Part shown: positions 1,279 through 56,161 of the stretch, in pieces
Position numbering within the stretch: position 1 is the stretch's first letter
Layout: each line of letters begins with the position of its first letter
Virus record (IMG/VR): IMGVR_UViG_3300046656_000441
Coordinates: 1-56,754 of that record
Strand: one strand, 5' to 3'
DNA from: a virus
Lineage: Duplodnaviria > Caudoviricetes
Length of the DNA: 56,754 nt
The notes under the pieces: model-generated
What the model saw: only the letters and a program-made list of their open reading frames with translations
Database searches by the model: none
Told to the model about the DNA's origin: nothing
Program-made: the position numbers and the translations under genes

Positions 1279-1553
1279 CGGTGCCTCGCAATCTCGCGCA
1301 TGTTGTGCTGCACGACATAGGCGCGAACCCCCACCAGGCCGGCGCCCATCGCGAGCGCGAGACGCGGGTGTGTCGCATGCAGCCGGCGCAGCGAGCGGTC
1401 AGCCGCCCATGCTTGCGCGCCCAGGATGCCATCAATCGCCACCGGGTTCTGTGTAGGCAGAAGCACCTCGCGCCCGCCAGTGTTCAGCATGTAGTGGGTG
1501 GTTGCGGCGTCCGAGCCGGCGAGAATCCACCAGGACAATAGCAGGGGCTTCAT
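1275..1553 (-). CDS. Small membrane protein, DUF5658-like
   Basis: Hydrophobic segments with DAATT..GGRE..P pattern recalled from DUF5658-type proteins. Confidence 0.45.
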   Translation of the reverse strand: MKPLLLSWWILAGSDAATTHYMLNTGGREVLLPTQNPVAIDGILGAQAWAADRSLRRLHATHPRLALAMGAGLVGVRAYVVQHNMREIARHR

Positions 1554-1912
1554 CGGCGGCTCAGCGTCAGCACGCCATAGGGGCCGATGCAGCGCTCCCA
1601 GGTGGACGCGTCGAAGATGTTCCCGCGCACCGTGGTTGCCTCGCTCTTGCCGATGAACGGCTTGGGACCGCCCGCATAGAGCACGGCGCCGTCGCTGTTG
1701 CGGATGAAACCGTAGTAGGACGAGCCCTTGTAGCCCTGCGGGCCGGTCTCGACGCGCATGAGCTTGGTGTATTTCGGGCCAGCGCTGGCCTCGATGTGCG
1801 TGACGTAGAGTCGCACGCTATCGCCCGCATGGGTCTTGTTGGTGACGCGTTCGACTTCCGCGATGAAGTCTTCGAGCGCGGCGTCGAACGTCTGCTTCTG
1901 TGTGGTTTCCAT
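1550..1912 (-). CDS. Conserved-looking phage early protein (METTQKQ...; KY..FI...G.V...P...RGNIFD)
   Basis: AGGAGG RBS; clean codon bias. Confidence 0.6.
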   Translation of the reverse strand: METTQKQTFDAALEDFIAEVERVTNKTHAGDSVRLYVTHIEASAGPKYTKLMRVETGPQGYKGSSYYGFIRNSDGAVLYAGGPKPFIGKSEATTVRGNIFDASTWERCIGPYGVLTLSRR

Positions 1913-1927
1913 TGTGCCCTCCTGATG

Positions 1928-1943
1928 TGCAATCACCGTGCCA
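1928..1943 (-). promoter_or_regulatory. sigma54-type element TGGCACGGTGATTGCA
   Basis: Matches TGGCACG-N4-TTGCW; 16 nt from GC to ATG 1912. Confidence 0.75.
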
Positions 1944-2124
1944 CCCGCATCAGCATCTCTTCGGCGCCCATCACCGCCGGCTCGCCGCAGCGCTTGCACG
2001 GGTAGCCCTTGGCGTCGGGCTCCACGAACGTCTGGCGCCCGTGGCAGGCGACGCAGAACCCCGTGCCGTTGTCCTTCTCGACTGCCGTCATTATCGCCTT
2101 GATGGTGAGCTTCAGCTTGGTCAT
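1933..2124 (-). CDS. Small zinc-ribbon protein (CVAC...CKRC)
   Basis: AGGAGG RBS; two CxxC pairs. Confidence 0.6.
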   Translation of the reverse strand: MTKLKLTIKAIMTAVEKDNGTGFCVACHGRQTFVEPDAKGYPCKRCGEPAVMGAEEMLMRVAR

Positions 2125-2324
2125 TTCGCCCTCCTGATTCGGACGATGTTGTCTTCCGTCGCGACGCCAGGCGTGCCGTAGCGCCCGCCCATGTTCAGCA
2201 CCCAGCCGTAGGGTCCGCGCATCACCGCCTTGCCCGACTTCTCCGCCCACTCCTGGCCGTCGCGCCCGATGCCGGCGGGCACGAGGATGGTGACGCGGTC
2301 GCCGTGTCGAATGGTATCAATCAT
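2121..2324 (-). CDS. Hypothetical protein (MIDTIRHGDRV...)
   Basis: AGGAGG RBS before ATG 2324. Confidence 0.6.
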   Translation of the reverse strand: MIDTIRHGDRVTILVPAGIGRDGQEWAEKSGKAVMRGPYGWVLNMGGRYGTPGVATEDNIVRIRRAK

Positions 2325-2503
2325 TGTGCCTCCTGATTGTGCAATCGCTGTGCCACCAGCCAGCCGCGCACGCCTTGGCGTGCGGGACCGAGCAAGACGG
2401 GGCGTTTGGCTGCACGTTTCGCGCGGCGTGCCCGTATCCACGCGTATAGCTCCTCCGGTGTCATCGTCGCGTTGCGTTTCGCGCGGGTCATTCTCGCCAT
2501 CAT
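2321..2503 (-). CDS. Small basic hypothetical protein, first gene of the leftward arm
   Basis: ATGA overlap with the next gene; start uncertain. Confidence 0.35.
   Translation of the reverse strand: MMARMTRAKRNATMTPEELYAWIRARRAKRAAKRPVLLGPARQGVRGWLVAQRLHNQEAQ
2340..2355 (-). promoter_or_regulatory. sigma54-type element TGGCACAGCGATTGCA
   Basis: TGGCAC-N5-TTGCA; 16 nt from GC to ATG 2324. Confidence 0.75.
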
Positions 2504-2506
2504 TCA

Positions 2507-2606
2507 CCGTCCTGATTCGGGGACGACTGTCCTGATTTGCCGTCCTGATTCGGGGACGAGAACCGCCCGCGAGCGTCGCGTAGCGCGTAGAACCGCTCGC
2601 GAGCGT
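2507..2606. repeat. Short direct repeats
   Basis: CCGTCCTGATTCGGGGACGA at 2507-2526 and 2540-2559 (partial GTCCTGATT at 2529-2537); AGAACCGCYCGCGAGCGT at 2559-2576 and 2589-2606. Confidence 0.85.
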
Positions 2607-2618
2607 AGCCACCTATCT

Positions 2619-2861
2619 CGGCACGAATCTTGCCCAGCAGGCGCGTCTCGTGCAAGTCCGACCGCTTTGGTCCGGCATGGACTATGCTGTCATCAGCGAA
2701 GCGCGTGCCGCGTTCCCGATTACGTTTTCGCATGGGCCGTGCGATTGCAAGCGAGATGCCGGCGAGTGTTCCACAAAAATAGGACACGAAGTATCGATAG
2801 TGGACATTCGGAGCACGGGAAACGCGAAAACGCCAGTGTTTACGCTGGCACGCCGCGTGCT
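2619..2861. promoter_or_regulatory. Divergent control region with 7 GG-N10-GC sigma54-type elements
   Basis: + strand: CGGCACGAATCTTGC 2619, AGGCGCGTCTCGTGCA 2639, CGGCATGGACTATGCT 2673, GGGCCGTGCGATTGCA 2734, CTGGCACGCCGCGTGCT 2845; - strand: CGGCACGCGCTTCGCT 2695-2710, CGGCATCTCGCTTGCA 2746-2761. Confidence 0.7.
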
Positions 2862-2873
2862 CTATTGTCTGGC

Positions 2874-3080
2874 ATGCCCACCAAAACCGCCGATTACGAT
2901 AAGCGCTATTCCGTTCTATGGCTATCGCGTGACGGAGAGCCCGAACTAGTCGCGCGTCCAGTCGCGCGGTTTCGCACGCTACAGAACGCGCGAGACTTTG
3001 CCACAGAATATGCTGCCGATACATCGGGCGGATTCGTGGCGATTCGCGACAATGAGACCGATACGTTCATCGAATCGTAA
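2874..3080 (+). CDS. Hypothetical early protein (MPTKTADYDKRY...), probably leaderless
   Basis: C-terminal part of ORF 2337..3080; ATG 13 nt after the GC of the 2845 element; no SD. Confidence 0.5.
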   Translation: MPTKTADYDKRYSVLWLSRDGEPELVARPVARFRTLQNARDFATEYAADTSGGFVAIRDNETDTFIES

Positions 3081-3107
3081 ACCGCAGCCTATCAGGAGAT
3101 TACAAAA

Positions 3108-3509
3108 GTGAAAAACCACGGCCAGTCGAACAACACCATCACGCGCTCACTCGCAAACGCGCAGATTGCGCATGCGGCATCATCGGTCGTATTCGACGCG
3201 CGCGACGTCGCCAGCGTCGACGCGTTGTCCACGGTTTTCCGTATCTACACTGAGGACACGGGCGACGATTTCCCGGAGCATGTGACCCGCATCGGCTTTG
3301 ATGGCGCGACGATGTTCAGCGCGACCGGCATTTACAAGGGCCAGACGGAGCGTTCCGCCGTGCTCGAAATCATCGCCCCATACGGGCGTCGCGCCGATGT
3401 GCTCGCGCTCACGGTCGCCCTTGTTGATGCGCATCATCAGGAGTGCGCTATTCTCTCCTGGCAGAACGCCCGCGTGTTCGATTCAACGTTCGTCTTCGGC
3501 TCGCGGTAA
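3108..3509 (+). CDS. Hypothetical protein (G.T.F...G.YKG..E.S...EI)
   Basis: AGGAG RBS; globular-looking composition. Confidence 0.6.
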   Translation: MKNHGQSNNTITRSLANAQIAHAASSVVFDARDVASVDALSTVFRIYTEDTGDDFPEHVTRIGFDGATMFSATGIYKGQTERSAVLEIIAPYGRRADVLALTVALVDAHHQECAILSWQNARVFDSTFVFGSR

Positions 3510-3535
3510 CCACGGCATTTCAGGGAGAACGGGCA

Positions 3536-3754
3536 ATGAAGCTTTATAGCTGGTATGGACTAGACGGGCGAGATTACGGGGTAGATGTTGTTGCCGTTAT
3601 GGCGACCAGCTATACCGCGGCGCTCAAAAAGGCAACCAAGGTAGTGGAAGCACGGCACGCCTACGATGATGAGCGCCGCGTGCAAGCCATTGCACGGCTG
3701 CAGCTGCAGCCACCTCGTATGACGTCGACAATTTCACTCTCGTATTACGAGTAG
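3536..3754 (+). CDS. Hypothetical protein (MKLYSWYG...)
   Basis: GGGAG RBS; followed by a hairpin. Confidence 0.5.
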   Translation: MKLYSWYGLDGRDYGVDVVAVMATSYTAALKKATKVVEARHAYDDERRVQAIARLQLQPPRMTSTISLSYYE

Positions 3755-3763
3755 CGTCAACCA

Positions 3764-3789
3764 CGGGCGCCCTTACGGGCGCCTATTTC
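3764..3789 (+). terminator. Possible hairpin/terminator GGGCGCCC-TTAC-GGGCGCCT
   Basis: Inverted repeat after a stop codon; weak U tract. Confidence 0.35.
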
Positions 3790-3808
3790 AGGGAAGGGAC
3801 AGCAATCA

Positions 3809-4444
3809 ATGCGCATCAACAAATCGCCCCATGCGGCCCACGTAGCGCGCTACCGCGCGAATCTTCGCAAGGTATACGCGCGCGCGACCGATGCCGACAA
3901 ACGCGAAGGGCTGGCGTGGTATCCAACCGCCGCGGCAGGCTGCAATACATGGGCGCAAGGTTTTGGGCTAGACGCCCGCACAATCGCCAGCGTCATTGCA
4001 GCCATCAGTCCGCAATGCGACTGGACAAGCAACCTGCGCATTGCGTTCGAACTACTCTCAGGACAGCCGCGGGTTACCGGTGGCGCCTTGCGCGCGAACG
4101 TCGAAAAGGCGCGCCAAATCTTGAACGACCGTGCTCACGGGGTAGCAGGGTATTTCAAGGTTGCCCCGAAAGTGACCGCGTTTTCGCGCAACCTGGCTGG
4201 AGATGATAGCGTCGTCACAATCGATGCGCATGCAGCGCAAGCCGCAACCAACAACCTGGGCATTTCCACGGTTAGACCTGCCGCCTACGTCGTGTTCTCA
4301 CAGTGTTACGTCGACGTGGCGCGCGAGCTGGGGATTCGCCCTTGCGATTTCCAAGCAATCGTATGGTGTGCGTGGAAGCGTCGATACTCGCCGGAGCGTA
4401 AACGCGCCATCAAACGCGCGAACGCGCGCAAGGCGGAGGACTAG
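3809..4444 (+). CDS. DUF7178-like / HhH DNA-glycosylase-like phage protein
   Basis: G..WY, IAAISPQ..W..N, KV.AF..N, VTIDAH, QA..W motifs recalled from this phage family. Confidence 0.55.
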   Translation: MRINKSPHAAHVARYRANLRKVYARATDADKREGLAWYPTAAAGCNTWAQGFGLDARTIASVIAAISPQCDWTSNLRIAFELLSGQPRVTGGALRANVEKARQILNDRAHGVAGYFKVAPKVTAFSRNLAGDDSVVTIDAHAAQAATNNLGISTVRPAAYVVFSQCYVDVARELGIRPCDFQAIVWCAWKRRYSPERKRAIKRANARKAED

Positions 4445-4448
4445 CACA

Positions 4449-4706
4449 ATGGTAATCGACGCCTTGATAGACTTCGACGGGGGCGCCATCACGCAGACGG
4501 TTGACGGAGCGCTCCGCGTTCGATTCGCGCTCGAATGCTACCACGGGGCATTGTCGGATAGCTTGAACGACCGGTATCGTGCCCGGGGCAATGATGCCGG
4601 TTGCGATTTGCTACGCTCGCAGCTGACCGCGCTCGAATCCCAGCTAACCCGCGTGCGCGAAGCCATTGCGCGCGCCTACACCGAAAAGGGAGTATCTCAT
4701 GTCTGA
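4449..4706 (+). CDS. Hypothetical protein with C-terminal coiled coil
   Basis: GGAGG RBS before ATG 4449. Confidence 0.5.
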   Translation: MVIDALIDFDGGAITQTVDGALRVRFALECYHGALSDSLNDRYRARGNDAGCDLLRSQLTALESQLTRVREAIARAYTEKGVSHV

Positions 4707-4956
4707 TAGCTATCGCCGTTACAGCGCTGACTCGGAGGACCTTGGGAGCACGACGCGTGAGGACGCCAAGCGCTGGCGCGCCTACATGCGGAGCCTTGAG
4801 GAGCGAGGCGCGCCGCGTAAACGCGCGCACTCCACTGGAACGATGCACGCGAGCACGCGCGCATCATTCGACGCCGCATGTGCGCGCGCACGCGCGACAC
4901 ATGAGGACGAATCAATCGATGCGCGCGAAATGTTCGCGCGCATCATCGCCAGCTAG
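4699..4956 (+). CDS. Hypothetical protein (MSDSYRRY...)
   Basis: GGGAG RBS; overlaps the upstream stop. Confidence 0.4.
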   Translation: MSDSYRRYSADSEDLGSTTREDAKRWRAYMRSLEERGAPRKRAHSTGTMHASTRASFDAACARARATHEDESIDAREMFARIIAS

Positions 4957-5435
4957 ACTGCTACTCGGGACGCGCGCCTAGTGCGCGCGTTCCGCCCATC
5001 ATCATCGACGCGCGCATCACGCGCGCATCACTCCCGCCCATTACGCCATTCAACGTAACGCGCGACACGTGCGCGGCGCGCGCGCGTCGCATCGATTGAC
5101 ATTCACGCGCGCGTGATTCTCGCGCGTGAACGCGTGCGCCACTTCCGGCCGCACGTCCTTCCACCCGATATGGCGCGCCCGGCGGCGAGCGTAGCGAGGA
5201 CGTGTGGGGGTGCGCCCGATTCCGGCGCCGAATCCGGCCAGGCAAGCGGACCTGGGGCGCCGCGTTCCGGCCCGAAACCCCGGCATCGAGGGGGATTAGG
5301 CACAGAGTTGCACCGGCCGGGGAACCGGCCAACGTTGGCCAATGGACGTCCATAGGGGGATGCGCGCGCGTACGCACGCGTGTGCTGGGGGTGTGTGGGG
5401 TGGGTAGTCCTGACCCGCGATGTCTGCTGCCATTA

Positions 5436-5451
5436 TGGTGCAGCCCTTGCA
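5436..5451 (+). promoter_or_regulatory. Weaker sigma54-type element TGGTGCAGCCCTTGCA upstream of the packaging genes
   Basis: GG-N10-GC with TTGCA in non-coding DNA. Confidence 0.4.
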
Positions 5452-5482
5452 GGATGTCAAGCTCCCGTGTTACCATCGGTGC

Positions 5483-5563
5483 GTGACCATCCTCCGAGCC
5501 GTCTGCCTGGTGGCTGGGCTAGCGGCATTCATCCTCTACGCCAAGCTAAAGCCCGAGAACTAA
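5483..5563 (+). CDS. Possible 26-aa membrane peptide (MTILRAVCLVAGLAAFILYAKLKPEN)
   Basis: GTG..TAA frame ending at the terS RBS; one hydrophobic helix; below the ORF track cut-off. Confidence 0.25.
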   Translation: MTILRAVCLVAGLAAFILYAKLKPEN

Positions 5564-5570
5564 AGGAGTT

Positions 5571-6104
5571 ATGCCCAGCCCCCGCGCCTCAGCCGCTATC
5601 ACCGACGAGTCCCGCATGGCGCCCGCCGCCTCGGAAGGGCTCATTGCGCCCTCGGACTACCGGGTCGCCGCGGAGCGCCGCGACCGGGAGCGCCAGAACC
5701 GCAAGCCCGGCCCCAAGCCGGCTGAGGTAAGCGAAGCAATGGCGGAAGTGGTGGTCAACCTGATGGACAAGCTGGAAGCTGCCGCCATCGCCCGCCGGCT
5801 GAAGATTGACCCCCGCACGGTGCGCGAGACCATCAAGGCGGCGCGCACCAGCCTGGCGGCACGCGCCGAGGTCTATGTCGAGCTGCATGCCCATGCTGCC
5901 GCCATCGCGGCCATGAACGGTGACGCGAAGCCGGCCCAGTGGGCGCTCGAACGCATCCACGAGGACGGCGACCGGGTGATTGACCCACCCAAGGCTGAGG
6001 AGACCAAGGCGCCCGCCACCTTCAATATCGGGTTCAAGATTGGGGGTCTGCCCGAGGGAGTCGTGGTCAACCCGCTGGCGCTTGACGGCGAGGTCGCCAA
6101 GTGA
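5571..6104 (+). CDS. terS: Terminase small subunit (putative)
   Basis: AAGGAG RBS; HTH-like IARRLKIDPRTV and AQWALER; directly precedes terL. Confidence 0.65.
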   Translation: MPSPRASAAITDESRMAPAASEGLIAPSDYRVAAERRDRERQNRKPGPKPAEVSEAMAEVVVNLMDKLEAAAIARRLKIDPRTVRETIKAARTSLAARAEVYVELHAHAAAIAAMNGDAKPAQWALERIHEDGDRVIDPPKAEETKAPATFNIGFKIGGLPEGVVVNPLALDGEVAK

Positions 6105-7720
6105 ATGTGACCAATGCCCTGCTCGCGCAGGGTGGCTTCATCCCGGGTCTGCCGCCCATCGCCGCCGAGGAGATGGACCGCATCGATGAGGCGCTCAAAG
6201 CCGCGGTCATCCCCGACCGGCGGAAGTCCTACTTCGCGGCCAACGAACTCGCGCTCCTGCCCCGCGATGCCTTCTGTGTGTCGCGCCCGAAGGGCGCGGT
6301 AGAGATTCTCTATCGACCGTCCTCCGAGAAGCACAAACTCTATCATGCGAGCACGTTGCCCAAGCTCATCATGGAGGGACGCCGCGGCACCGGCAAGTCC
6401 CACACGATGCGCTGGGATTTCCACATGCGCGCGATGGGTTACGCCGGGTTCCGCTACCTGATGCTCCGGCGGACGATGCCCGAGCTGAGGAAGTCCCATC
6501 TCCAGTTTGTCGAGACCGACATGGAGAAGATGGGCGGGCGCGCGCTCGGTGTGCGCAGCGGCAACGTCGAACTCCACTACGCCAACGGGAGCCGCGGGCT
6601 CTTCGGCCACTGCGAGACCGAGGCCGACGTCCTCAAGTATCTGTCGGCCCAGTTCGACGCCATCTGCTTTGACGAAATCACCACCTTTGACTGGGATATG
6701 GTTACCCGCATCGGCACCAGCTGCCGTGTGGTCGAGGGCTCAGGGCTGACCGCCATCATCCGCGGCGGCACGAACCCCATTGGTGTGTCGGCCGACGAAG
6801 TGCACCACTACTTCATTGCCAAGGACGTCCTCAAGGAAGAGGACGCCAAATACGACCCGAGGGACTGGGGCTCGCTCCACATCGAGCGCGAGGACGCCGC
6901 AGGGACCGTCGACTTCGAGCAATACGACAAAGCGTTCGTCGGGTTGAGCAAAGCCTACCAGGACGCCTGGCTCGACGGGAAGTGGGGCGTCGAGGGCGCC
7001 TACTTCACCATCGAGGCGCCGAACCTGTGTAGGAATGACACGATGCCGCGCTGCAGCTGGACCGACAACGAGCCGGCGCGCATGTGTCTCCTCTGGCCGG
7101 GCATGCACATCTATCGCGTGTTCGACTACGGCTTCCACGACCCGAGTGTGTGCGTGTGGATAGCGGCGCTGCCCAACGGGCGCTACGTCGCGTTCAAAGA
7201 GATGTCGTGGGTGCGCAAGACGGTGCAGCAGATTATCCCCGAGATTCTCGCCGCCTCCGAGGGGATGAAGGTTATCACGACCATTGCCGACCCCACCCTG
7301 TGGGATGGGGAGAAGGAAATGGGCCACTGCATGGCCCACATCTTCGAGGACAGCGGGATTATGCTCACGGCCGGCGTGAACGACCGCACCGCGGCCGGGT
7401 TCGCCATCCAGGAGCTGCTGAACACCAACCTCAAGGACGGGGAGCCGACGCTGCTCCTCAACGAGGAGAGCTGCCCGACCCTGGTCAAGACGCTGCGCTC
7501 GATGCGCATCGACAAGAAGCATCCGGGCCGCATCGCGGACTCGAAAGTCGACCACATGCCTATCGCGCTGGGCTACTTCGCGCAGGCGAAACCGCCCGCG
7601 CCGCAGCCGCCCGCGCTGTCCGTCTCACGACCCTGGATGCACAACCCTTCGGGCGAGCGCCCCGTCATGGGCGCCGGTAATGTGCGCCGCCGAGCCAACT
7701 CCGTATACGATATTCACTGA
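6101..7720 (+). CDS. terL: Terminase large subunit
   Basis: Walker A GRRGTGKS, Walker B ICFDE, coupling GTNP, nuclease DYGFHDP ... DH. Confidence 0.93.
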   Translation: MNVTNALLAQGGFIPGLPPIAAEEMDRIDEALKAAVIPDRRKSYFAANELALLPRDAFCVSRPKGAVEILYRPSSEKHKLYHASTLPKLIMEGRRGTGKSHTMRWDFHMRAMGYAGFRYLMLRRTMPELRKSHLQFVETDMEKMGGRALGVRSGNVELHYANGSRGLFGHCETEADVLKYLSAQFDAICFDEITTFDWDMVTRIGTSCRVVEGSGLTAIIRGGTNPIGVSADEVHHYFIAKDVLKEEDAKYDPRDWGSLHIEREDAAGTVDFEQYDKAFVGLSKAYQDAWLDGKWGVEGAYFTIEAPNLCRNDTMPRCSWTDNEPARMCLLWPGMHIYRVFDYGFHDPSVCVWIAALPNGRYVAFKEMSWVRKTVQQIIPEILAASEGMKVITTIADPTLWDGEKEMGHCMAHIFEDSGIMLTAGVNDRTAAGFAIQELLNTNLKDGEPTLLLNEESCPTLVKTLRSMRIDKKHPGRIADSKVDHMPIALGYFAQAKPPAPQPPALSVSRPWMHNPSGERPVMGAGNVRRRANSVYDIH

Positions 7721-7728
7721 GGTTAGCC

Positions 7729-9861
7729 ATGCTGGACGAAGGACAAGTCAACATTCCCGAGGGCAACGATGTGCCCGACACCGTGGCGAACGCGAACCCG
7801 GCGTCAACCGCGGACACCGACCGCTGGCGCGGTCGCATCGCGAAGTCGCGGCGCTACCGTCGAGACCTGACGGAGGATTGGCGCACGAACATCGACTTCC
7901 GCCGCGGCAAGGTGTTCGATGCCGACTCCGACATGGACCGGATTGCCATCACCTATGATTGGTCAGCCACCAAGGCGAAGCAGGCGCAGCTGTTCAGCCA
8001 GGTTCCCCAGGTGCGCCTCAAGGCGAAGAACAAGCGCTACGAGAAGGGCGTCCCCGTCTTCGCGAAGAAGCTGAACGACGCGCTGTCGCACGCCGACGTC
8101 GGCACCGCGATGGACGAGTGCTTGCCCAACTGCATCAACGCCGCCGGAGTCGGGCTCGTGCTCATCGCCTATGAGACGCGCACCGAGGACCGCGTGTTGC
8201 CGTCCGTGACGAAGCCGGCGCCGCCCGCGCCAATGATGATTCCGGGACAGCCGCCGCCACCCGCGGCGCCACCGATGGACGTCAACGGCGCCCCCGACAC
8301 CGGGGAAGCCGAGGCACCCGGCGCACCGGAGGAGACCCCGGAGCAGCCGATTCCCTACACCACCGCGCGGCGCTTCACCATCGACAGCCTGAGCCCGAGC
8401 GATGCGCTGTGGGACCTGACGTTTACCGGGTCCAACTTCAACCGCGCCCCGTGGGTTGGGCGCAGCGGACGCATGCACTTCTCGAAAGCGATGAAGGAGT
8501 TCGGGCTGAAGCCGAGCGACAAGGCGACCGTGTGCGGCACTGGCACGCAGCAAGCTTACGACCGGTTGTCCGAGGACGCCGACAAGGACCGGTTTGCCGA
8601 AGCGAACATGGTCGAGTTCGATGAGGTGTTCTACTGGCGCTACCTGTATCACGACGACGAAACGAGTTTCGAGGCCATCCAGCGCCTGGTGTTCGTGCAC
8701 GGGCGCGGCACGCCTGTGGTCAACGAGCCCTGGAAGGGGCAGCGCCGGCTCGACGCAGACGGACAGGAATCCGAAACGGGCGACATCATCGTGGGCTCCT
8801 GCAAGTTCCCCATCCAGTTCCTGACGCTGACCTATGTGACGGACAGCGCGATTCCGCCGTCCGACTCCGCGATGGGCCGGCCGCAAATCGAGGAACTCAT
8901 CCAGGGTCGCACCGACATGATGCTGCAGCGGCGTCAGTCGCGCCCGATGCGCTGGATGAACAACAACCTGGTTCCGCCAGCCCTGGTCACCGCGATTATG
9001 CGCGGCACCTGGCAGGGTGTCGTGCCCATCAACGGACCCGGCGAGCGCGCCTTCGGGGAAGTCGCACGCGCGAGCTACCCGCACGAGGACGACACCTTCG
9101 ACCGTATCGCGAAGAACGACCTGATGGAGACCTGGAATATCGGCGGGTCCCAGGGCATCGGCGGCGGCTCGAACACGCAAATCCGCACCGCGGCGGAAGC
9201 GAACAACGCCCAGTCCAACATGCAGACCCGGGTGGGCTACGAGCGCGCCCGCTGCAACAAGTTCTTCTGCAACATCGCAGAAGTCCTCGCCGGCCTCATC
9301 TGCCTGTTCGGGGAGTGGGACGAGGAAGAGACCGCGGCGCTCCAGGGCATGGACGTCCAACACATGCCCAGCTACTACATGTATACGACGCGCACCGATT
9401 CGAGCGTGCTGCTCGACGCGGAACAGCGTTACTCGCGCCTTGAGCGCTACACCAACATCGCGGCGAAGTCGGGTCTGGCCGACATGGTCCCGGTGCTCCA
9501 GGAGATGGCGAGCCTGGTGGACGTAGACGAGTCGACGGTGGCGCGGCCGACTGGTGGGAAGCCGGAGCCGGTTAACGTCTCGCTCCGTGTGGATGAACAG
9601 TCGCTGCAGGACCCGATTGTCGTGGCGATGCTCATCGAATCCGGCCAGTTCCCCAAGCCGGAAACCCTGGAGATGGCGAAGAAGGCCATCATGCAGTCGC
9701 GTCAGCTACCCGTGCCGCCGCCGCCTCCGGGTATGCCACCTGGTGGCCCAGGCGGAGCGCCGCCACCCGAGAGCGCACCTCAGCCGGCGCAGCCGGCGGA
9801 CGCCAACGCCCACTGGGACATGGCGGGCCGGGTCAACAAGCGTCAGCAGGACGGTCGATGA
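7729..9861 (+). CDS. Portal protein (podovirus/P22-like size)
   Basis: 710 aa directly after terL; TAAEA motif; Pro-rich C-terminal tail. Confidence 0.85.
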   Translation: MLDEGQVNIPEGNDVPDTVANANPASTADTDRWRGRIAKSRRYRRDLTEDWRTNIDFRRGKVFDADSDMDRIAITYDWSATKAKQAQLFSQVPQVRLKAKNKRYEKGVPVFAKKLNDALSHADVGTAMDECLPNCINAAGVGLVLIAYETRTEDRVLPSVTKPAPPAPMMIPGQPPPPAAPPMDVNGAPDTGEAEAPGAPEETPEQPIPYTTARRFTIDSLSPSDALWDLTFTGSNFNRAPWVGRSGRMHFSKAMKEFGLKPSDKATVCGTGTQQAYDRLSEDADKDRFAEANMVEFDEVFYWRYLYHDDETSFEAIQRLVFVHGRGTPVVNEPWKGQRRLDADGQESETGDIIVGSCKFPIQFLTLTYVTDSAIPPSDSAMGRPQIEELIQGRTDMMLQRRQSRPMRWMNNNLVPPALVTAIMRGTWQGVVPINGPGERAFGEVARASYPHEDDTFDRIAKNDLMETWNIGGSQGIGGGSNTQIRTAAEANNAQSNMQTRVGYERARCNKFFCNIAEVLAGLICLFGEWDEEETAALQGMDVQHMPSYYMYTTRTDSSVLLDAEQRYSRLERYTNIAAKSGLADMVPVLQEMASLVDVDESTVARPTGGKPEPVNVSLRVDEQSLQDPIVVAMLIESGQFPKPETLEMAKKAIMQSRQLPVPPPPPGMPPGGPGGAPPPESAPQPAQPADANAHWDMAGRVNKRQQDGR

Positions 9862-10253: not shown

Positions 10254-10270
10254 TTGGCACGCTCCTTGCT
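10254..10270 (+). promoter_or_regulatory. sigma54-type promoter TTGGCACGCTCCTTGCT
   Basis: Consensus match filling the intergenic gap; GGAG SD lies downstream of the predicted +1. Confidence 0.8.
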
Positions 10271-10293: not shown

Positions 10294-10821
10294 GTGAAAA
10301 TGGTAGACGCTCAGTGCAAGACCTGTGCCACCGTGCGCGTGGACACGCTCATGCGCGACACCGGGTTCATCGCCCCCTGCCAGGAATGCGGCGCCGATAT
10401 GGAGCCGCTGTCCACCACATCGCGCCCGAGCGCGACCACGCCAGCCGTCGCTCCTGATTCAATCCCTGGAGGGATGTGGATTCGCCACGGCATCTGTAAT
10501 ATCGACGGGACCCCGCGTCGCTACGACTCGTTCTCGGAGATGCGCAAGGAAGCCAAGGCGCGCGGCCTCTACAACGTGGTCGAGCACGAGACCGACCCCA
10601 GCTCCGGCTCCGACAAGAACAAGCACACGCAGCGGTTTGTCGGCCTGCCGGCCTCCCTGACGCAAGCGGACGAGGACGCACGCGTCGCCGCGTGGTGGGC
10701 CAACGAGAAGCTCGAAGGCTACGCACCGCCGGCACCACCGACCCAGGAAACCGGTATTCGCATGGGCGGCTCGAACGACCCGCACGCGAACACCAAGGCC
10801 ATCATCAAAGCACATATCTGA
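10294..10821 (+). CDS. FmdB-like zinc-ribbon protein
   Basis: CKTC...CQECG at the N-terminus. Confidence 0.65.
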   Translation: MKMVDAQCKTCATVRVDTLMRDTGFIAPCQECGADMEPLSTTSRPSATTPAVAPDSIPGGMWIRHGICNIDGTPRRYDSFSEMRKEAKARGLYNVVEHETDPSSGSDKNKHTQRFVGLPASLTQADEDARVAAWWANEKLEGYAPPAPPTQETGIRMGGSNDPHANTKAIIKAHI

Positions 10822-21864: not shown

Positions 21865-23606
21865 TTTCTCTCCGTAAGTTCCTCGGCGGCTCATGGGAAA
21901 CCGTGCGCGACTACCTCCAGAGCGACCTGGAGGCCATCGAGACGAGCTTCAACACCCTGGTGGCGAACTCGTTCAACGACGACGGGACCATTGCCCCGAG
22001 CGCCTTCCCCGGGGAGTCCGACGCCGCCACGCGCTACATCGCGAACACCGGCACCAACCACGCCCCGAAGTGGGACCAGGTCGAGCTGAGCAACGGTGTC
22101 AAGGGTCGACTGCCCTTTGCAAATCTCGTGCCAGCGTCACGCGGAGGCGTCCTGGTGGGGCGCCAGAACAACATCCGGGGCGATTTTGGCGAGATTTACC
22201 TCGGAGCAGGTTTGCGCATGTCGGGCAACGTGCTGGAGGCAGTTCCGGCGCCGCCGGCAGCGTCCCCCGAAGAGAACTTCGCGACCGGGGGGATTCCTGG
22301 GCCGATGGGTCCGCAGGGGCCAGCGGGACCGATGGGACCCCCGGGACGGGATGGGATGGACGGTGGCGGCGGCGACTGGTCCATGTCGAGCGTCAGCTCG
22401 GAGGGGAACATCTTCACCCCGGGCAGCGTTATCTTTGCCGGCGCCAGTGGCATCCTCGCCCAGGACAACGCGGGCCTCTTCTGGGACGACACGAACAACA
22501 TACTGACGGTGGCCTCGGCGTCGGCGCTCGCCGCAGTCGAGACCGATGGCCTGGTGCTGTCCAATGCGACCGCGGCGACCGGTGGGGTGCTCGTCCAGAT
22601 GCCGCCGCGCCTCAAGTTCGCCGGGTCCGCGTGGAACGGCGCGACTGCCGACGCGATGACGGCATACCTGGAATGGTTGCCCCAGTCGGGCACCACGCGC
22701 GGCCAAATCAAGTTCGGCGTGCAGCGCAACGGCGCCTCGACCACCTATCCGGTTATCATCGACTCCAACCCCACCTCGGGTGCGGCCATTCTGACGCTGT
22801 CCTCGCCGGGCGCGTTTCGTGGCGGCGACGGCAGTGCAGCTTCTCCCGTGTTCGGCTTCGTCAACAGTGGCGGTGGGAGCGCCATCGGCTTCTGGACGCC
22901 GGCCGCGAACGACATGGACCTGGTGTGCGGCGGGGCCAACCAGATTCTCTGGGGCGCCTCGCTCTGGCGCAACAGCGCAAACCTGCTGATGGGCTGGTCA
23001 AGCAACGCCGACCCGAACAATGCAGTGGCGGATACGGCGTTCATTCGCCAGGCCGCAGCGAAAATCAAGTTCTACAACAAGCCCGAGACGACACCGGACG
23101 CCGGCTTCACGCTCGACTTCTCGGTGGACTCTGTGGCTCGCTTCCGCGACCGTGCGGACTCCACCGATGTGGTCGTCAAGGGCGCCGGCTACGCGTTCCC
23201 CGGGACCCAGATTGCCTCGGCCGATGCCAACACCCTGGATGACTACGAGGAAGGCACCTGGACGCCATCCGATGGGAGCGGCGCCGCATTGAGCTTCGCC
23301 GGGGTGAACGCCACCTATGTGAAAGTCGGCCAGGCGGTGCACGTGAGTTTCCAGTTCACGTTCCCGGCCACGGCCAGCGGCGCCGCGATTGTCATCGCCG
23401 GGCTCCCGTTCGCCGTCGAGAACTCGGGCGTCAGCGACTGGGGCGGCGCCTTCACCTACACCACACTGGCGCAAAGCAACACGCTACTCGCGGTCAACAA
23501 CTCGACCACATTCGCCGTTTTCACCAACGCTGGCGTCGGCGTCACGAATGCCGCTTACACCGGCCAGGTGTTCAACGGCTTCCTCGTTTACCGCGCCGCA
23601 GCCTAG
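21861..23606 (+). CDS. Tail fibre protein with a short collagen-like segment
   Basis: GPMGPQGPAGPMGPPGRDG; C-terminal ANTLDDYEEGTWTP fibre motif. Confidence 0.8.
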   Translation: MISLRKFLGGSWETVRDYLQSDLEAIETSFNTLVANSFNDDGTIAPSAFPGESDAATRYIANTGTNHAPKWDQVELSNGVKGRLPFANLVPASRGGVLVGRQNNIRGDFGEIYLGAGLRMSGNVLEAVPAPPAASPEENFATGGIPGPMGPQGPAGPMGPPGRDGMDGGGGDWSMSSVSSEGNIFTPGSVIFAGASGILAQDNAGLFWDDTNNILTVASASALAAVETDGLVLSNATAATGGVLVQMPPRLKFAGSAWNGATADAMTAYLEWLPQSGTTRGQIKFGVQRNGASTTYPVIIDSNPTSGAAILTLSSPGAFRGGDGSAASPVFGFVNSGGGSAIGFWTPAANDMDLVCGGANQILWGASLWRNSANLLMGWSSNADPNNAVADTAFIRQAAAKIKFYNKPETTPDAGFTLDFSVDSVARFRDRADSTDVVVKGAGYAFPGTQIASADANTLDDYEEGTWTPSDGSGAALSFAGVNATYVKVGQAVHVSFQFTFPATASGAAIVIAGLPFAVENSGVSDWGGAFTYTTLAQSNTLLAVNNSTTFAVFTNAGVGVTNAAYTGQVFNGFLVYRAAA

Positions 23607-24416: not shown

Positions 24417-24474
24417 CGTCATTATTTTGACACCGGGACCCAGTGGGGCTATCATAGCTCTGCTGGGTCCCCGG
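24416..24474 (+). promoter_or_regulatory. sigma70 promoter with operator-like palindrome and hairpin
   Basis: TTGACA 24427-N17-TATCAT 24450; GCGTCATTATTTTGACAC at 24416-24433; inverted repeat GGGACCCAG..GCTAT/ATAGC..CTGGGTCCC centred on the -10. Confidence 0.8.
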
Positions 24475-24855: not shown

Positions 24856-25998
24856 ATGGCCGACCAGACCACCGACCCGTGGGCGACGCAGGACAACTAC
24901 CCGAACGGGGCTCCTGCCGGTAGCCCCACGACGGAGCCCGTGCCCCCGACCAGCACGACCCAGGTCCAACCGACCAAGGCAGCGCTGCCAACCCCGACCG
25001 GGACCCTGGCGCGGCCCTCGACCGACCCGTGGTATATCGATGCGCAGAAGGACCCGAACAACCCCGACTTCTACCAGGGGCGCAAGTCCCAGCTGGACGA
25101 CTGGGTGAACTGGGTCAAGGGCTCGCAGTTCTCGAACGGCACCGACGACGGACGTGGCACGGGTTTTGCAGGGGGCGCGGCCCAATACCGCAACCCACAG
25201 GGGCTCCAGGCGCTCGCGGACGCCTACAACGCGTCGCACCCCGGCCAGAACGCCAAGCCGGTGTTCGACAGCGCGAACGACAAAATCGACTTCGGCTTCG
25301 GCCCGGTGGACGTCATCACCGCGGGCGGGCAGTATTGGTATGACAACGGCAATTCGGCGCTCGGGCCGTTGGCACAGCAGGGCAGCGGTGGCGGAGCCGG
25401 TGGTGGCAGCGCAGCCGGCGGCTCCGGCGGCGCGACGGGTAGCATCCCTGGCGGTCAGCTCGGCTACCAGGACCCGAGGATGCAGCAGCTCTACAACGAG
25501 CTGGTGGCTCGCTCGAACCAGTCGCTGAACGTCGACCCGAACGACCCGATTATCAAGGCGCAGGTCGACGCGTTCCGCAACGCGCAGACGCGTGGACAGC
25601 GCGCCAACCTGGCGGCGCTCGCGGAGCAGGCTGGCCCGAACTCGAATCAGACGGCCGAAACCCGCCATGCGGGCGAAGTCGTCGGACAGCAGACCGCCGG
25701 CATGCAAGCCGAGCTGATGGGCCGCGAGGTCGATGCTCGACGCAAGGAAATCGCGGACGCGCTCAACGGTCGCTTCGGGGTGCTCTCGGCGGCTCAACAG
25801 GCGCAGCTGCACCGCGAGGACGAGCTGCTGCAGAGCCGGTCCCTGGACATCCAGTCGCAGCTCGGCAACCGTGGCTACGACGTGCAGAGCCAGCTGGGCA
25901 ACCGCAACGCGGACATCAGCGCGAACGCGAACGACAACGCCGCGGCGCAGAACGCGTGGCAGAATCAATACGACATTCTGTTCGGGAAGGGCTACTAA
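24856..25998 (+). CDS. Putative internal virion/ejection protein
   Basis: Gly/Gln/Ala-rich with helical C-terminus; position after tail genes. Confidence 0.55.
   Translation: MADQTTDPWATQDNYPNGAPAGSPTTEPVPPTSTTQVQPTKAALPTPTGTLARPSTDPWYIDAQKDPNNPDFYQGRKSQLDDWVNWVKGSQFSNGTDDGRGTGFAGGAAQYRNPQGLQALADAYNASHPGQNAKPVFDSANDKIDFGFGPVDVITAGGQYWYDNGNSALGPLAQQGSGGGAGGGSAAGGSGGATGSIPGGQLGYQDPRMQQLYNELVARSNQSLNVDPNDPIIKAQVDAFRNAQTRGQRANLAALAEQAGPNSNQTAETRHAGEVVGQQTAGMQAELMGREVDARRKEIADALNGRFGVLSAAQQAQLHREDELLQSRSLDIQSQLGNRGYDVQSQLGNRNADISANANDNAAAQNAWQNQYDILFGKGY
25155..25170 (+). promoter_or_regulatory. Intragenic sigma54-type element TGGCACGGGTTTTGCA
   Basis: Consensus match, encoded with atypical codons (GGT TTT GCA). 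Confidence 0.6.
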
Positions 25999-36821: not shown

Positions 36822-37052
36822 TTATTCTCCTGCAATCGGCATGCCGTCTGGGAGGAACTGCTTCCAGCTGTCGGGGAACGGCAGCGGCTCCTGCTGCTCG
36901 TAGTGGACCCGGCGCTTGTCGGCGTGGATGATGTGGAAGCGCTCCCCCTCAGACTCAAAGAACCCCGGCACCTCGGCCTCGGCCTCGATGGTTCCCTGGA
37001 TGACGTCAATGCCGTTGCGCATGCGCACCACGAGCCGGCGCAGGGCGCTCAT
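36822..37052 (-). CDS. Hypothetical protein
   Basis: ATGA overlap; packed ORF. Confidence 0.45.
   Translation of the reverse strand: MSALRRLVVRMRNGIDVIQGTIEAEAEVPGFFESEGERFHIIHADKRRVHYEQQEPLPFPDSWKQFLPDGMPIAGE
36831..36846 (-). promoter_or_regulatory. sigma54-type element CGGCATGCCGATTGCA
   Basis: GGCA-N6-TTGCA; 13 nt from GC to the SPFH ATG. Confidence 0.65.
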
Positions 37053-46617: not shown

Positions 46618-46910
46618 CGTGGGTGGCCTATTCCTATTGTATGCACAGAGCCGACAAGTAGCTCTTTCCACGCATCCTCAAGGATGTAGGGCGGAACGAC
46701 GTCCGGCTTGGGCGCCTCGAAGTCCCGATTGCGGTATGTCGACCAGGACCTCTTTCCATCGATGCGGAACTTGTGGCGCAGCGTTTTGCGCTCCATCACT
46801 AGCACCATAGAAAGGCGCAGGATAACCCGACATGAGCCCGTGTCAACCACGAAGCGCCACGTCGTGCATCTCAGTTTTGACTCTGTTGTGCGCGTGATGT
46901 CGATTGTCAT
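46614..46910 (-). CDS. Hypothetical protein
   Basis: ATGA overlap with the nuclease start. Confidence 0.4.
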   Translation of the reverse strand: MTIDITRTTESKLRCTTWRFVVDTGSCRVILRLSMVLVMERKTLRHKFRIDGKRSWSTYRNRDFEAPKPDVVPPYILEDAWKELLVGSVHTIGIGHPR

Positions 46911-53563: not shown

Positions 53564-53889
53564 AACTTGACAGGTTTTTCTTTTCGAGCAGATAATGGCA
53601 GGACGACATCGCGGGAAACAGGAGCCTCACTTTGTGTTATGCCCACATTGCCACACACATCCACTCGGTTGTTACGCAAGGGGCGTAGCGAAGCGAAGCC
53701 CCCACTCACCCATGTCCACAGGGCTCCACGTATGGACGTCCGGACGTCCATTGGATATACAGGGGAATCGGTTGGTTCCACGTGTGCCGCCAGCAGTCGC
53801 CGCAATGCTTCCGCCTTGGTGAGCTCGGGCAGCGGGGAATCGGCCGGCGAGCGGTAGTAGTCGGTGGTTTCGCGCACCGTGTGAATCAT
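53560..53889 (-). CDS. Hypothetical protein
   Basis: ATGA overlaps at both ends. Confidence 0.35.
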   Translation of the reverse strand: MIHTVRETTDYYRSPADSPLPELTKAEALRRLLAAHVEPTDSPVYPMDVRTSIRGALWTWVSGGFASLRPLRNNRVDVCGNVGITQSEAPVSRDVVLPLSARKEKPVKL

Positions 53890-54653: not shown

Positions 54654-55103
54654 TTAGCGAACCTCCTGATAGCGCTCACGTCTCAGCGTGGCGTGGTTGT
54701 CGTCCTTGTGATTGAGATACACCGTGCGCACCGTCAGCGGGCTTACCATCCCGGTGCCTAGCGCGAGCACCACGTCGTAGTCGGTGCGCTCCAGGTGCAT
54801 CAGCTTGATGCCCTGGGCATTGCTCGAACCCACGAGCACATGGAGCGGGAAGCGCACCAGCCAGTGTGCCGGCATGCCCCCAAATGTGGACACCTCGATG
54901 ACCTCGAACGAGGACGGCAGGCGCTCCGGGAGCGCGTTCAGCAGCTCGCGTGCCGCCGTCTTGTCGAGTGCACGCGGCAGGCGCTCCAGTGCCGCCTCGC
55001 GAGCATGCTTGGAGTAGCTCAGGCGCACGCACGGCTGGGGCATCGGGTGCCCCTTGGGGAACCCCATATCACGATGGTAGAGTTTCGACAGCATGGTTGG
55101 CAT
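54654..55103 (-). CDS. Hypothetical phage protein (YSKHA...VRTVYLN...DNH.TL)
   Basis: GAGGAGG RBS; S.HA...VRT.Y pattern loosely resembles BECR-fold RNases. Confidence 0.55.
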   Translation of the reverse strand: MPTMLSKLYHRDMGFPKGHPMPQPCVRLSYSKHAREAALERLPRALDKTAARELLNALPERLPSSFEVIEVSTFGGMPAHWLVRFPLHVLVGSSNAQGIKLMHLERTDYDVVLALGTGMVSPLTVRTVYLNHKDDNHATLRRERYQEVR

Positions 55104-56161
55104 CAATCCTCCTCAGTTGGCTCAGTCTTGTGCAACGCGCGTGCCGGCTTGATGACAAAGGTCGAGTGTCGCTTTGTGATGACAGTGTCCGCGTCGATGC
55201 GCTCGATGCCGTATTCGAGCACCAGGTCGTCGGCCCCGCCCACGGTCTCCAGCCCGCCAAAGCTATTCTTGCGGTTGGTCAGCATCAGATGGCCCGGGTT
55301 GACCGCCTCCAGATACCATGTCGCTCGCGCGTAGTTGTGCCAGAACGCCGAGCCGAATGGCTTCATCACGTCGCCGGCTCGGTTCATGTGGGCCAACACC
55401 AGGGCGCCGCAGCGTAACCGGCGAAGCGCACCGAAGAACTCGGTGGGTATTTCAGCGCCCTCAGTGGCTGCTGCCGGCGCCGCTGAGTCGACCACCATGA
55501 ACTCGATGCCCAGGCGCTTGATAACTTCGCGCAACGAGTCCTCGATAACCGCCAGCGGCGCGCGTGCCGTCATGTAGTAGAGCCCCGGGAATACCTGGTC
55601 ATCGAACAAGCTGGTGAGCCGTTCCTTGTGGTCCTCTGCGCGCATTTCCCAGTCGAGATACAGTGTGGGTGTGTCGACGCTGAGCTGCGCCGCCCACCAC
55701 AGGGAGAGAAGCGACTTGCGCGCGCCGCCATCGGCAAACAGGATGGTGACGTCGTCGGTGAGAATGGGGAAACCCTTGATGTCAGCAAAGCGCTCGCTCT
55801 CGCGCGGCGTCACCTCATCGAGCACCACGGGCGCTTCGGTGCGCGCAATGTGGAACGACACACGGGCCAGGAATGAGTGAATGAGCGGCGCCCAGTTGTC
55901 CTCCTCAGTCGCAAACGCATTGAGGTAGCGAATGAGGCGCTCTCGATGCGCCAGGTCCGCGATGTCGACTTTGGCGCTGAACAGGTTGGTGCGCCGCACG
56001 GGGTCGTGCAGCATCGCCTTGGTGTTCAGGCGCTCACCGGTCCAATAGGGTTCCGTCAGCCTCAGCAGGTAGTCGCCCAGGCGCTCGTGGAACGAGTAGT
56101 CCTCTTCAACGCGTATGTTGTCGATGACGTCGAGCGCGTAGCTGGCGCGGGGTGATGGCAT
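55103..56161 (-). CDS. AAA_25/RepA-like helicase domain protein
   Basis: ADGGARKS (degenerate Walker A), LYLDWE, VVDS, LAH, PFGS..W. Confidence 0.7.
   Translation of the reverse strand: MPSPRASYALDVIDNIRVEEDYSFHERLGDYLLRLTEPYWTGERLNTKAMLHDPVRRTNLFSAKVDIADLAHRERLIRYLNAFATEEDNWAPLIHSFLARVSFHIARTEAPVVLDEVTPRESERFADIKGFPILTDDVTILFADGGARKSLLSLWWAAQLSVDTPTLYLDWEMRAEDHKERLTSLFDDQVFPGLYYMTARAPLAVIEDSLREVIKRLGIEFMVVDSAAPAAATEGAEIPTEFFGALRRLRCGALVLAHMNRAGDVMKPFGSAFWHNYARATWYLEAVNPGHLMLTNRKNSFGGLETVGGADDLVLEYGIERIDADTVITKRHSTFVIKPARALHKTEPTEED
55131..55146 (-). promoter_or_regulatory. sigma54-type promoter CGGCACGCGCGTTGCA
   Basis: 28 nt upstream of ATG 55103; SD falls within the predicted leader. Confidence 0.7.

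Follow-up and report, generated by a model that had tools for sequence, protein, structure and literature searches.

Genes and sites at the divergence point

The analyzed window is a whole IMG/VR virus record (IMGVR_UViG_3300046656_000441; 56,754 bases, G+C content about 64%) of an uncultivated phage (Caudoviricetes), which is rated 96% complete, is classed as 'linear', and has DNA present in soil and rhizosphere metagenome runs. The region under study is a cluster of motifs resembling the -24/-12 elements of sigma-54 promoters, which a first-pass annotation had described as a dense bidirectional array of seven GG-N10-GC elements at 2619-2861. A gene map based on the G+C content at third codon positions (GC3) comprises a minus-strand block at 79-2503, a plus-strand block from about 2874 to 34023 with the large terminase (6101-7720) and an SU10/P22-like portal, and a further minus-strand block at 34004-56579 with a family-A DNA polymerase, a helicase, an ERCC4 nuclease, and a dNMP kinase. 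A relative of 54.8 kb (G001) is collinear with the window, and the terminases are 71% identical. The counterparts of window positions 1545-2074 and 55257-55837 are located on one continuous stretch of G001, and therefore, the ends of the window represent an arbitrary break, and 2504-2873 is the sole divergence point of the map. Bidirectional sigma-54-type sites are indeed concentrated at this single divergence point, as had been proposed. A homologous control region was found in two other records only, L007, which is part of G001, and L008, and these two are close to one another.

The stretch with the motifs had been taken to be apparently non-coding, but half of it turned out to be coding. 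The first leftward gene, orfL1 (2500-2733 on the minus strand), encodes a basic protein of 77 amino acids (MRKRNRER...SPNQDGE), and its stop codon overlaps the ATG of the next gene (ATGA at 2500-2503). In L007 and L008, frames of 91 and 86 codons, respectively, begin at this ATG and share the first six residues with orfL1. Two homologues among called metagenome proteins (P0002 and P0003) show identities of 63% and 61% and share the block IGGYARER-Y-RD-RGRF-SPNQD. Despite a GC3 of only 0.68 and the lack of a Pfam family, orfL1 is accepted here as a gene. Therefore, the true intergenic spacer is confined to 2734-2873. The spacer is followed by the first rightward open reading frame (ORF; 2874-3080 on the plus strand, 68 amino acids, GC3 0.59), which is not preceded by a Shine-Dalgarno (SD) sequence, is absent from L007 and L008, and matches no Pfam family.

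Two of the sites are situated in this spacer. The rightward site D (TGGCACGCCGCGTGCT, 2846-2861 on the plus strand, with GG at 2847-2848 and GC at 2859-2860) differs from the consensus TGGCAC-N5-TTGCW at one position, and with 18.3 bits in the scoring matrix described below, it ranks 13th genome-wide. In both L007 and L008 it reads TGGCATAGCGCGTGCT, and the CTATTGTCTG that comes next is identical. The ATG at 2874 is located 12 nt after the end of site D, and transcription would be predicted to start at about 2872, just 2 nt before this ATG. The leftward site C (CGGCATCTCGCTTGCA, 2746-2761 on the minus strand) has two mismatches and scored 12.4 bits in the window, 16.7 bits in L007, and 15.5 bits in L008, the spacer being different in the relatives (CGGCATGCACCTTGCA and CGGCATACACCTTGCA on the leftward strand, respectively). 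The distance between site C and the conserved ATG at 2733 is 12-13 nt, and the predicted start at about 2735 on the minus strand is again 2 nt before the ATG. The earlier statement that only the site at 2845 is placed to start a gene was thus mistaken, because in the window site C ends 12 nt before the ATG of orfL1. The start site predictions take the C of the GC element as position -12, and their geometry follows from the motif positions. Neither the ATG at 2733 nor that at 2874 has an SD sequence; together with predicted starts only 2 nt upstream, this means that the mRNAs from sites C and D would be leaderless.

Sites C and D are oriented back to back, with 84 bp between the motifs. This interval contains a dyad at 2766-2787 (GTGTTCCACAAAAATAGGACAC) that is conserved in the three genomes and has its center about 93 bp upstream of the predicted start of D. 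Written as a regular expression, the dyad pattern occurs once in the window and is absent from G001. It is a candidate site for an activator or a DNA-bending protein. No sigma-70-like promoter was found in 2200-3300. A terminator reading of 2847-2861 was rejected, as the hairpin simply corresponds to the near-palindromic -24/-12 element and, as judged by eye, is weaker in L007. The two oppositely oriented elements that had been reported to overlap at a TTGCAA palindrome do share this sequence at 2744-2749, but only the minus-strand member, site C, scores and is conserved.

How exceptional the cluster is depends on how the sites are counted. Nine GG-N10-GC elements were counted in 2619-2865, where the genome density predicts 4.8. 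Five of them are on the plus strand, as had been noted (GG at 2620, 2640, 2674, 2735, and 2847), and the minus strand contains four (GG at 2621, 2696, 2703, and 2747) instead of two. At a G+C content of 64%, this bare count is unremarkable: 6.2% of the equal-sized windows of the genome hold at least nine elements. The cluster might thus be viewed as a chance product of G+C-rich sequence. The scored sites contradict this view. A matrix of 24 columns was trained on 27 sites of the window and G001 that have at most one mismatch and are not part of the control region of either genome. Apart from sites D and C, it assigned 11.4 bits to 2619+ (site A), 9.3 bits to 2695-, 6.9 bits to 2639+, and less than 4 bits each to 2673+ (site B) and 2734+. 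Four sites in 2600-2880 reach at least 9 bits, a number attained in none of 2000 dinucleotide shuffles (mean 0.06), and three sites reach at least 11 bits, which again was not equaled in any of 2000 shuffles (mean 0.026). The cluster is the densest 250-bp stretch of scored sites in the genome, and when up to two mismatches to TGGCAC-N5-TTGCW are allowed, 7 of the 30 sites of the window fall into 2316-3014. As the sites are, in addition, conserved in the relatives, the probability of a chance origin is very low.

All four sites from A to D recur in L007, where their order and orientation are kept and their spacers are changed. L008 retains B, C, and D, also with changed spacers, and a minus-strand site takes the position of A. 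The -24 and -12 elements are thus conserved while the spacer varies in three genomes, two of which are close to one another. Site A has two mismatches to the consensus, and site B has three in the window and one in the relatives. For the motifs 2639+, 2695-, and 2734+, no counterpart was found. In summary, of the seven motifs originally listed, four (A, B, C, and D) look functional by these measures, and the other three would be background. More sites than one per direction are above background or conserved: A, B, and D in the rightward direction and C in the leftward direction.

Sigma-54-type sites throughout the genome

The sites at the divergence point belong to a larger set. The pattern GGCAY-N5-TTGC occurs 12 times in the window, compared with 1.33 expected occurrences; none of 100 shuffles contained more than 5. 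With at most one mismatch to TGGCAC-N5-TTGCW, 14 sites were found in the window (7 perfect) and 16 in G001 (4 perfect), whereas a first-order Markov null model predicts 2.1 and 2.8, respectively. For perfect matches, the chance expectation estimated from the base composition is about 0.05. The reversed pattern, used as a control in G001, gave 2+2 matches, and TGGCAY-N5-TTGC was not found in about 276 kb of unrelated viral loci, a negative control of 33 stretches (L020-L052) that had been fetched by a 15-mer match and were taken as chance matches. The sites have the same orientation as the local genes in 11 of 14 cases in the window and in 13 of 16 cases in G001. Orthologous pairs are kept in G001 for the sites at 1928, 2340, 40190, 43228, and 51921 (blastn) and at 36831 and 50493 (by eye). 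Ten of the 14 near-consensus sites of the window are situated at the divergence point or in the leftward block, where small early genes and those for replication are encoded.

An anchored alignment of 29 sense-oriented sites contained strong information only at T0 G1 G2 C3 A4 and at T11 T12 G13 C14 A15. Weaker signals were present in the flanks (G at -2, A at +18) and none in the spacer. This profile is the sigma-54 -24/-12 signature. An upstream motif at a fixed position was not found in this alignment. A shared upstream activator motif was rejected as well, as the enriched 7-mers turned out to be the GAATCAGG repeats near the cluster.

The motif could nevertheless be read by an unrecognized phage factor, a novel sigma-like protein or RNA polymerase, and not by the RpoN of the host. 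Most phage proteins are without a family assignment, and the model for T7-type RNA polymerases matched nothing in the phage in a search whose positive control matched nowhere either. In addition, the product of the gene at 5571-6104 has a weak match to a PHROG 'sigma factor' (E 0.0074). However, this gene occupies the position of a small terminase and has no Pfam match, neither Sigma70_r2 nor Sigma54_DBD nor Sigma54_CBD was matched in the phage, and the largest ORF of the window (879 amino acids) encodes the DNA polymerase. The profile fits the -24 TGGCAC and -12 TTGCA elements at the exact spacing and shows strong conservation nowhere else. We therefore regard a phage-encoded reader of the motif as very improbable.

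Several of the sites are followed by a start codon at a short distance. Two perfect consensus sites precede genes of the leftward operon: TGGCACAGCGATTGCA at 2340-2355 on the minus strand, the next promoter candidate down this operon, is 16 nt before the ATG at 2324 (9601+ in G001), and TGGCACGGTGATTGCA at 1928-1943 on the minus strand is 16 nt before the ATG at 1912 (orthologue 9849+ in G001). In the window, an ATG follows 12-16 nt after the motif at six sites (1928, 2340, 2746, 2846, 36831, and 50493), and the same arrangement was found at 9296, 9601, 12683, 16757, and 32275 in G001. The predicted transcription start would in these cases be 2-6 nt before the start codon. The genes orfL1, 2874, and the helicase gene at 50477 lack any SD sequence, and for the other genes, it lies outside the predicted sigma-54 transcript. 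The helicase start at 50477 is supported by the family match, which sets in at residue 14.

Not all perfect sites are arranged in this way. Three are located within structural genes (10315-10330 and 22118-22133 on the minus strand, 25155-25170 on the plus strand); two of them are antisense, and one is convergent with a conserved site at 10255+. The site 22118- is not kept in G001, and 10315- and 25155+ are not covered by an alignment. The antisense sites 10315- and 22118- would agree with a role of the motifs mainly in holding sigma-54 holoenzyme in inactive closed complexes, as an RpoN sink, as roadblocks, or as insulators. The failure to find an activator gene in the phage and a common upstream activator motif would also agree with this explanation, and sigma-54 holoenzyme is described as sitting on promoters in an inactive state (PMC4591121). 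It is opposed by the location of most strong sites, which are sense-oriented, just upstream of gene starts, and positionally conserved, and by orfL1, 2874, and the helicase gene at 50477, all without an SD sequence, which lie exactly where a sigma-54 start would give a leaderless mRNA. A predominant role as a sink or roadblock is very improbable. The two related proposals of the first-pass annotation, a polymerase-loading platform and a DNA decoy for RpoN, gained no specific support; most strong sites in the genome lie like working promoters, in sense orientation just upstream of genes.

Sigma-54 promoters stay silent until an ATP-driven enhancer-binding protein opens them, and this AAA+ protein is usually bound about 80-150 bp upstream of the promoter. 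A search for a phage-encoded activator gave no match to PF00158, and the AAA-like proteins of the phage are RadA/RecA-like (55103-56161) or belong to AAA_24. Comparison of four phage proteins with solved structures yielded nothing relevant. Between the perfect sites at 2340 and 1928, a 63-amino-acid zinc-ribbon protein with a CxxC...CxxC pattern is encoded (1933-2124 on the minus strand). Its matches to zinc-ribbon families, among them the DksA/TraR type, are weak (E 0.006-0.05, none reaching the cut-off), and it might be a factor that binds RNA polymerase.

Sigma-70-like matches are not enriched in the genome (9 versus about 6.7 expected). The four strongest (10-11 of 12) are located at 5432-5460 (-), 24427-24455 (+), 46819-46846 (-), and 53567-53596 (+), and the latter three are in gaps between genes. 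The matches at 24427+ and 46846- could be host sigma-70 promoters that are used alongside the sigma-54-type sites.

Sites within the first leftward gene

As orfL1 is coding, the sites A and B are antisense elements inside this gene. Both point rightward, toward site C. Site A (2619-2634 on the plus strand, CGGCACGAATCTTGCC) is nearly palindromic and has a predicted start at about 2645 on the plus strand. Site B (2673-2688 on the plus strand, CGGCATGGACTATGCT) has a predicted start at about 2699, and its orthologue TGGCATGAACCTTGCT in L007 and L008 scored 7.2 and 10.0 bits, respectively. Among the genomes, site B differs in its spacer and, in addition, at positions 1 and 12.

It could be argued that only C and D are promoters, which would then form an ordinary divergent pair, and that A and B are cryptic or incidental and kept by coding constraint or drift. 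Both are antisense inside a conserved gene, no ORF begins after either of them, and the orientation of A is not conserved in L008. Site B stays below 4 bits in the window and overlaps conserved codons. Moreover, intragenic sigma-54 binding is widespread in E. coli according to PMC4591121. The sites A, B, 10315-, and 22118- resemble these E. coli cases in being inside genes; the differences are that the sites of the window are viral, far denser (14 in 57 kb), and mostly sense-oriented upstream of starts. Two observations speak for a function of A and B. Although the peptides encoded by the segment of A are unrelated among the three genomes, a site of 11 to 18 bits is present there in every one of them, including a plus-strand site of 18.2 bits in the otherwise unalignable segment of L007, and a score of 11.4 bits or more has a chance probability of about 3.6e-5 per position. 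Site B has the consensus with a single mismatch in both relatives. The restriction to C and D appears unlikely to us.

The remaining motifs of the cluster fared less well. The plus-strand match at 2639-2654 (AGGCGCGTCTCGTGCA) was judged to be background, its spacing not being kept in L007 (by eye). The minus-strand match at 2695-2710 (CGGCACGCGCTTCGCT) is probably background, and its orthologue in G001, CGATGCGCGCGACGC, is without GG. The plus-strand match at 2734-2749 (GGGCCGTGCGATTGCA), which has the TTGCAA in common with site C, was also judged to be background; GG is lacking at this position in L007 and L008.

Two further features of orfL1 are conserved at the nucleotide level. An 18-mer at 2717-2734 (CGATTACGTTTTCGCATG), which spans the initial codons of orfL1 and the stretch that would be transcribed first from the putative promoter C, is identical in the window, L007, and L008, without a synonymous change. 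At 2510-2560, three copies of a repeat, GTCCTGATT(C), are present, which read AAUCAGGAC in the orfL1 mRNA. Two copies form CGTCC-N8-GGACG dyads or hairpins, the last of which would cover the SD sequence of the gene starting at 2503. The repeats are kept in L007 (6403-6450) and L008 (6716-6775), and further copies are found in the window at 841, 2132, and 2331. Conservation is at the nucleic acid level, because the copies in L008 are read in different frames (NQD, ESG, IRK). The repeats possibly serve translational coupling or control, or a protein might bind to them, about 155-205 bp upstream of the promoter candidate at 2340. They also match the AAUCAGGAGG context in which the ribosome-binding sites of the following leftward genes are embedded. 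A search of 1500-4000 against Rfam gave no match.

The genes around the control region (2321-3080 and 3509-5570) have an atypically low GC3. One of them, at 3809-4444 on the plus strand, was missed by the GC3-based gene finder and is a clear member of DUF7178/phrog_3842 (E 2e-40 and 6e-38). Contigs from four soil and rhizosphere runs contained identical copies of the region and a variant skipping 2356-2529, without informative variation at the sites. The variant contigs X2, X3, and X4 (three of the four runs) skip about 174-185 bases at 2356-2529 and have 18-29 other letters instead. The gene at 2321-2503 is thereby removed, as in L008, and the leftward early region is mosaic.

A predicted sigma-54 programme and its relation to known systems

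Taken together, the observations are best explained if the spacer 2734-2873 and the first leftward gene form the sole divergent control region of the phage, if the genes are largely served by promoters for the sigma-54 (RpoN) of the host, and if A and B are auxiliary rightward promoters. We consider this explanation probable, with moderate confidence. The sequence itself shows the quality, clustering, conservation, and orientation of the motifs, the coding nature of 2500-2733, and the lack of a recognizable activator, sigma factor, or sigma-54 gene in the phage; that RpoN binds, where transcription starts, that translation is leaderless, and what A and B do is inferred from it. Leftward transcription from site C would cover the early and replication genes, first orfL1 and then the small genes with the perfect sites at 2340 and 1928, and on a circular map, this series would continue into the replication block. 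Rightward transcription from site D would cover the packaging and structural operon. A and B would most likely act as auxiliary rightward promoters, the starts of which (about 2645 and 2699) face that of C (about 2735), so that polymerases would collide. Transcripts from A and B would be complementary to the leaderless orfL1 mRNA over its first 35-90 nt and would thus oppose leftward expression when rightward expression is on. A mutually exclusive left/right switch, which had been suggested as one option, is compatible with this geometry of A and B versus C, and the region may operate as such. Activation might be brought about by an enhancer-binding protein of the host, possibly without a specific DNA site, or by an unrecognized phage factor.

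Several results weigh against this proposal. The perfect antisense sites 10315- and 22118- are unexplained by a simple promoter model. Site B has three mismatches and a score of less than 4 bits in the window, and its overlap with the conserved codons S-x-V-H-A-x-P means that protein constraint could explain its conservation. The 14.3-bit minus-strand site in the place of A in L008 misfits a fixed role as a rightward promoter, and the predicted transcript from B to D showed no significant structure (fold z -0.87 and -1.35). The activator domain Sigma54_activat (PF00158) was not found in the phage at E values up to 1, while the positive control matched in 14 of 14 genomes. The scoring is partly circular, because the training sites of the matrix were picked by consensus, and the comparison of the control region comprises three genomes (the window, L007, and L008), two of which are close kin. 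The runs listed for the phage DNA include no RNA run, and the starts are predicted from motifs only. Regarding the host, no tRNA genes were found and the protein atlas returned viral portal clusters only.

A more far-reaching version would be that the whole programme is transcribed from host sigma-54 promoters, often with leaderless mRNAs and without a recognizable AAA+ activator, and that the cluster is an all-sigma-54 switch that silences C by collision and antisense RNA. This version is speculative, and we regard it as doubtful. If true, the phage would have to bring a novel means of its own for opening sigma-54 closed complexes, or else rely on a host activator that can act without binding DNA.

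The use of sigma-54 by phages is described as 'rare' but 'not unprecedented' in a 2016 paper (PMC5053324), according to which the development of the Pseudomonas phage YuA depends on host sigma-54; a 2023 preprint (bioRxiv 10.1101/2023.10.13.562163) states that YuA depends on sigma-70 and sigma-54. The view that there is no described equivalent thus needs to be qualified. A literature search, with most subscription journals outside its reach, retrieved no sigma-54-dependent phage besides YuA and no clustered arrangement. YuA (Pseudomonas aeruginosa, Yuavirus) and the phage of the window share a virulent-type character, a size of about 57-59 kb, a G+C content of about 64%, and (in the window, predicted) host sigma-54 promoters; also, no RNA polymerase was detected in the phage of the window, in a search without a working positive control. 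In contrast, the two phages are unrelated, as a megablast search with 1800-4500 of the window matched no cultured phage and Yuavirus was not among the tblastn matches listed. The YuA record has three promoters annotated as '-24/-12 consensus sequence' at 38.4, 40.9, and 47.2 kb, and these are dispersed in the late region on one strand and, at their best matches to TGGCAC-N5-TTGCW, have 3 to 5 mismatches. Positions 1-50000 of YuA contain no site with at most one mismatch, compared with 14 in the window and 16 in G001. Furthermore, the sites in the phage of the window would also serve replication genes, and they form a bidirectional cluster of four.

Two other types of control regions are of interest for comparison. 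Some divergent pairs of bacterial sigma-54 promoters share an upstream activator site, e.g., zraP/zraSR in E. coli. Similarly, the back-to-back -24/-12 pair of the window flanks a short spacer with a conserved dyad. However, a cognate activator gene is not nearby, the dyad is only about 44 bp from the predicted start of C, the promoters would give leaderless mRNAs, and two further sites face one of the promoters. The temperate coliphages 186 and P2 have switches of face-to-face sigma-70 promoters with repressors. The predicted convergent promoters and overlapping transcripts at a developmental control point (A and B versus C) are reminiscent of these switches, but the sites of the window are sigma-54-type, neither a repressor nor an integrase was identified in it, and interference is proposed from the arrangement of the sites.

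No cultured phage is close to this lineage. A megablast search with 1800-4500 against cultured phages gave no match, and tblastn with the terminase and the DNA polymerase yielded only distant matches, with less than 32% identity to any cultured phage. The protein encoded at 3108-3509, used as a query, recovered no further relative of the control region, and the invariant 18-mer recovered only L007 and L008. A terminase profile search had no match in species genomes, and its matches in metagenomes comprised one short relative of 60% identity without the control region and two sequences at 24%. A search with the DUF7178 protein gave two relatives at 31-33%, which lack the motif density of the window.

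While the use of sigma-54 by a phage was known already, the heavy genome-wide use of sigma-54-type sites, including sites at replication genes, and the compact four-site region appear to be new here, and they occur in a phage unrelated to YuA. The larger point would be a genome-wide sigma-54 programme with leaderless starts and without a recognizable activator. A phage with both replication and structural genes behind sigma-54 promoters would have its life cycle tied to a host signal, or it would need new means of firing these promoters. With 14-16 near-consensus sites in each genome, a compact control region of four sites, and predicted promoters that are repeatedly paired with a leaderless ATG, the lineage would offer a model for the exploitation of an alternative sigma factor by a phage, for leaderless translation of sigma-54 transcripts, and for convergent sigma-54 promoters as a switch, and its sites would supply tight, orthogonal promoter parts for synthetic biology.

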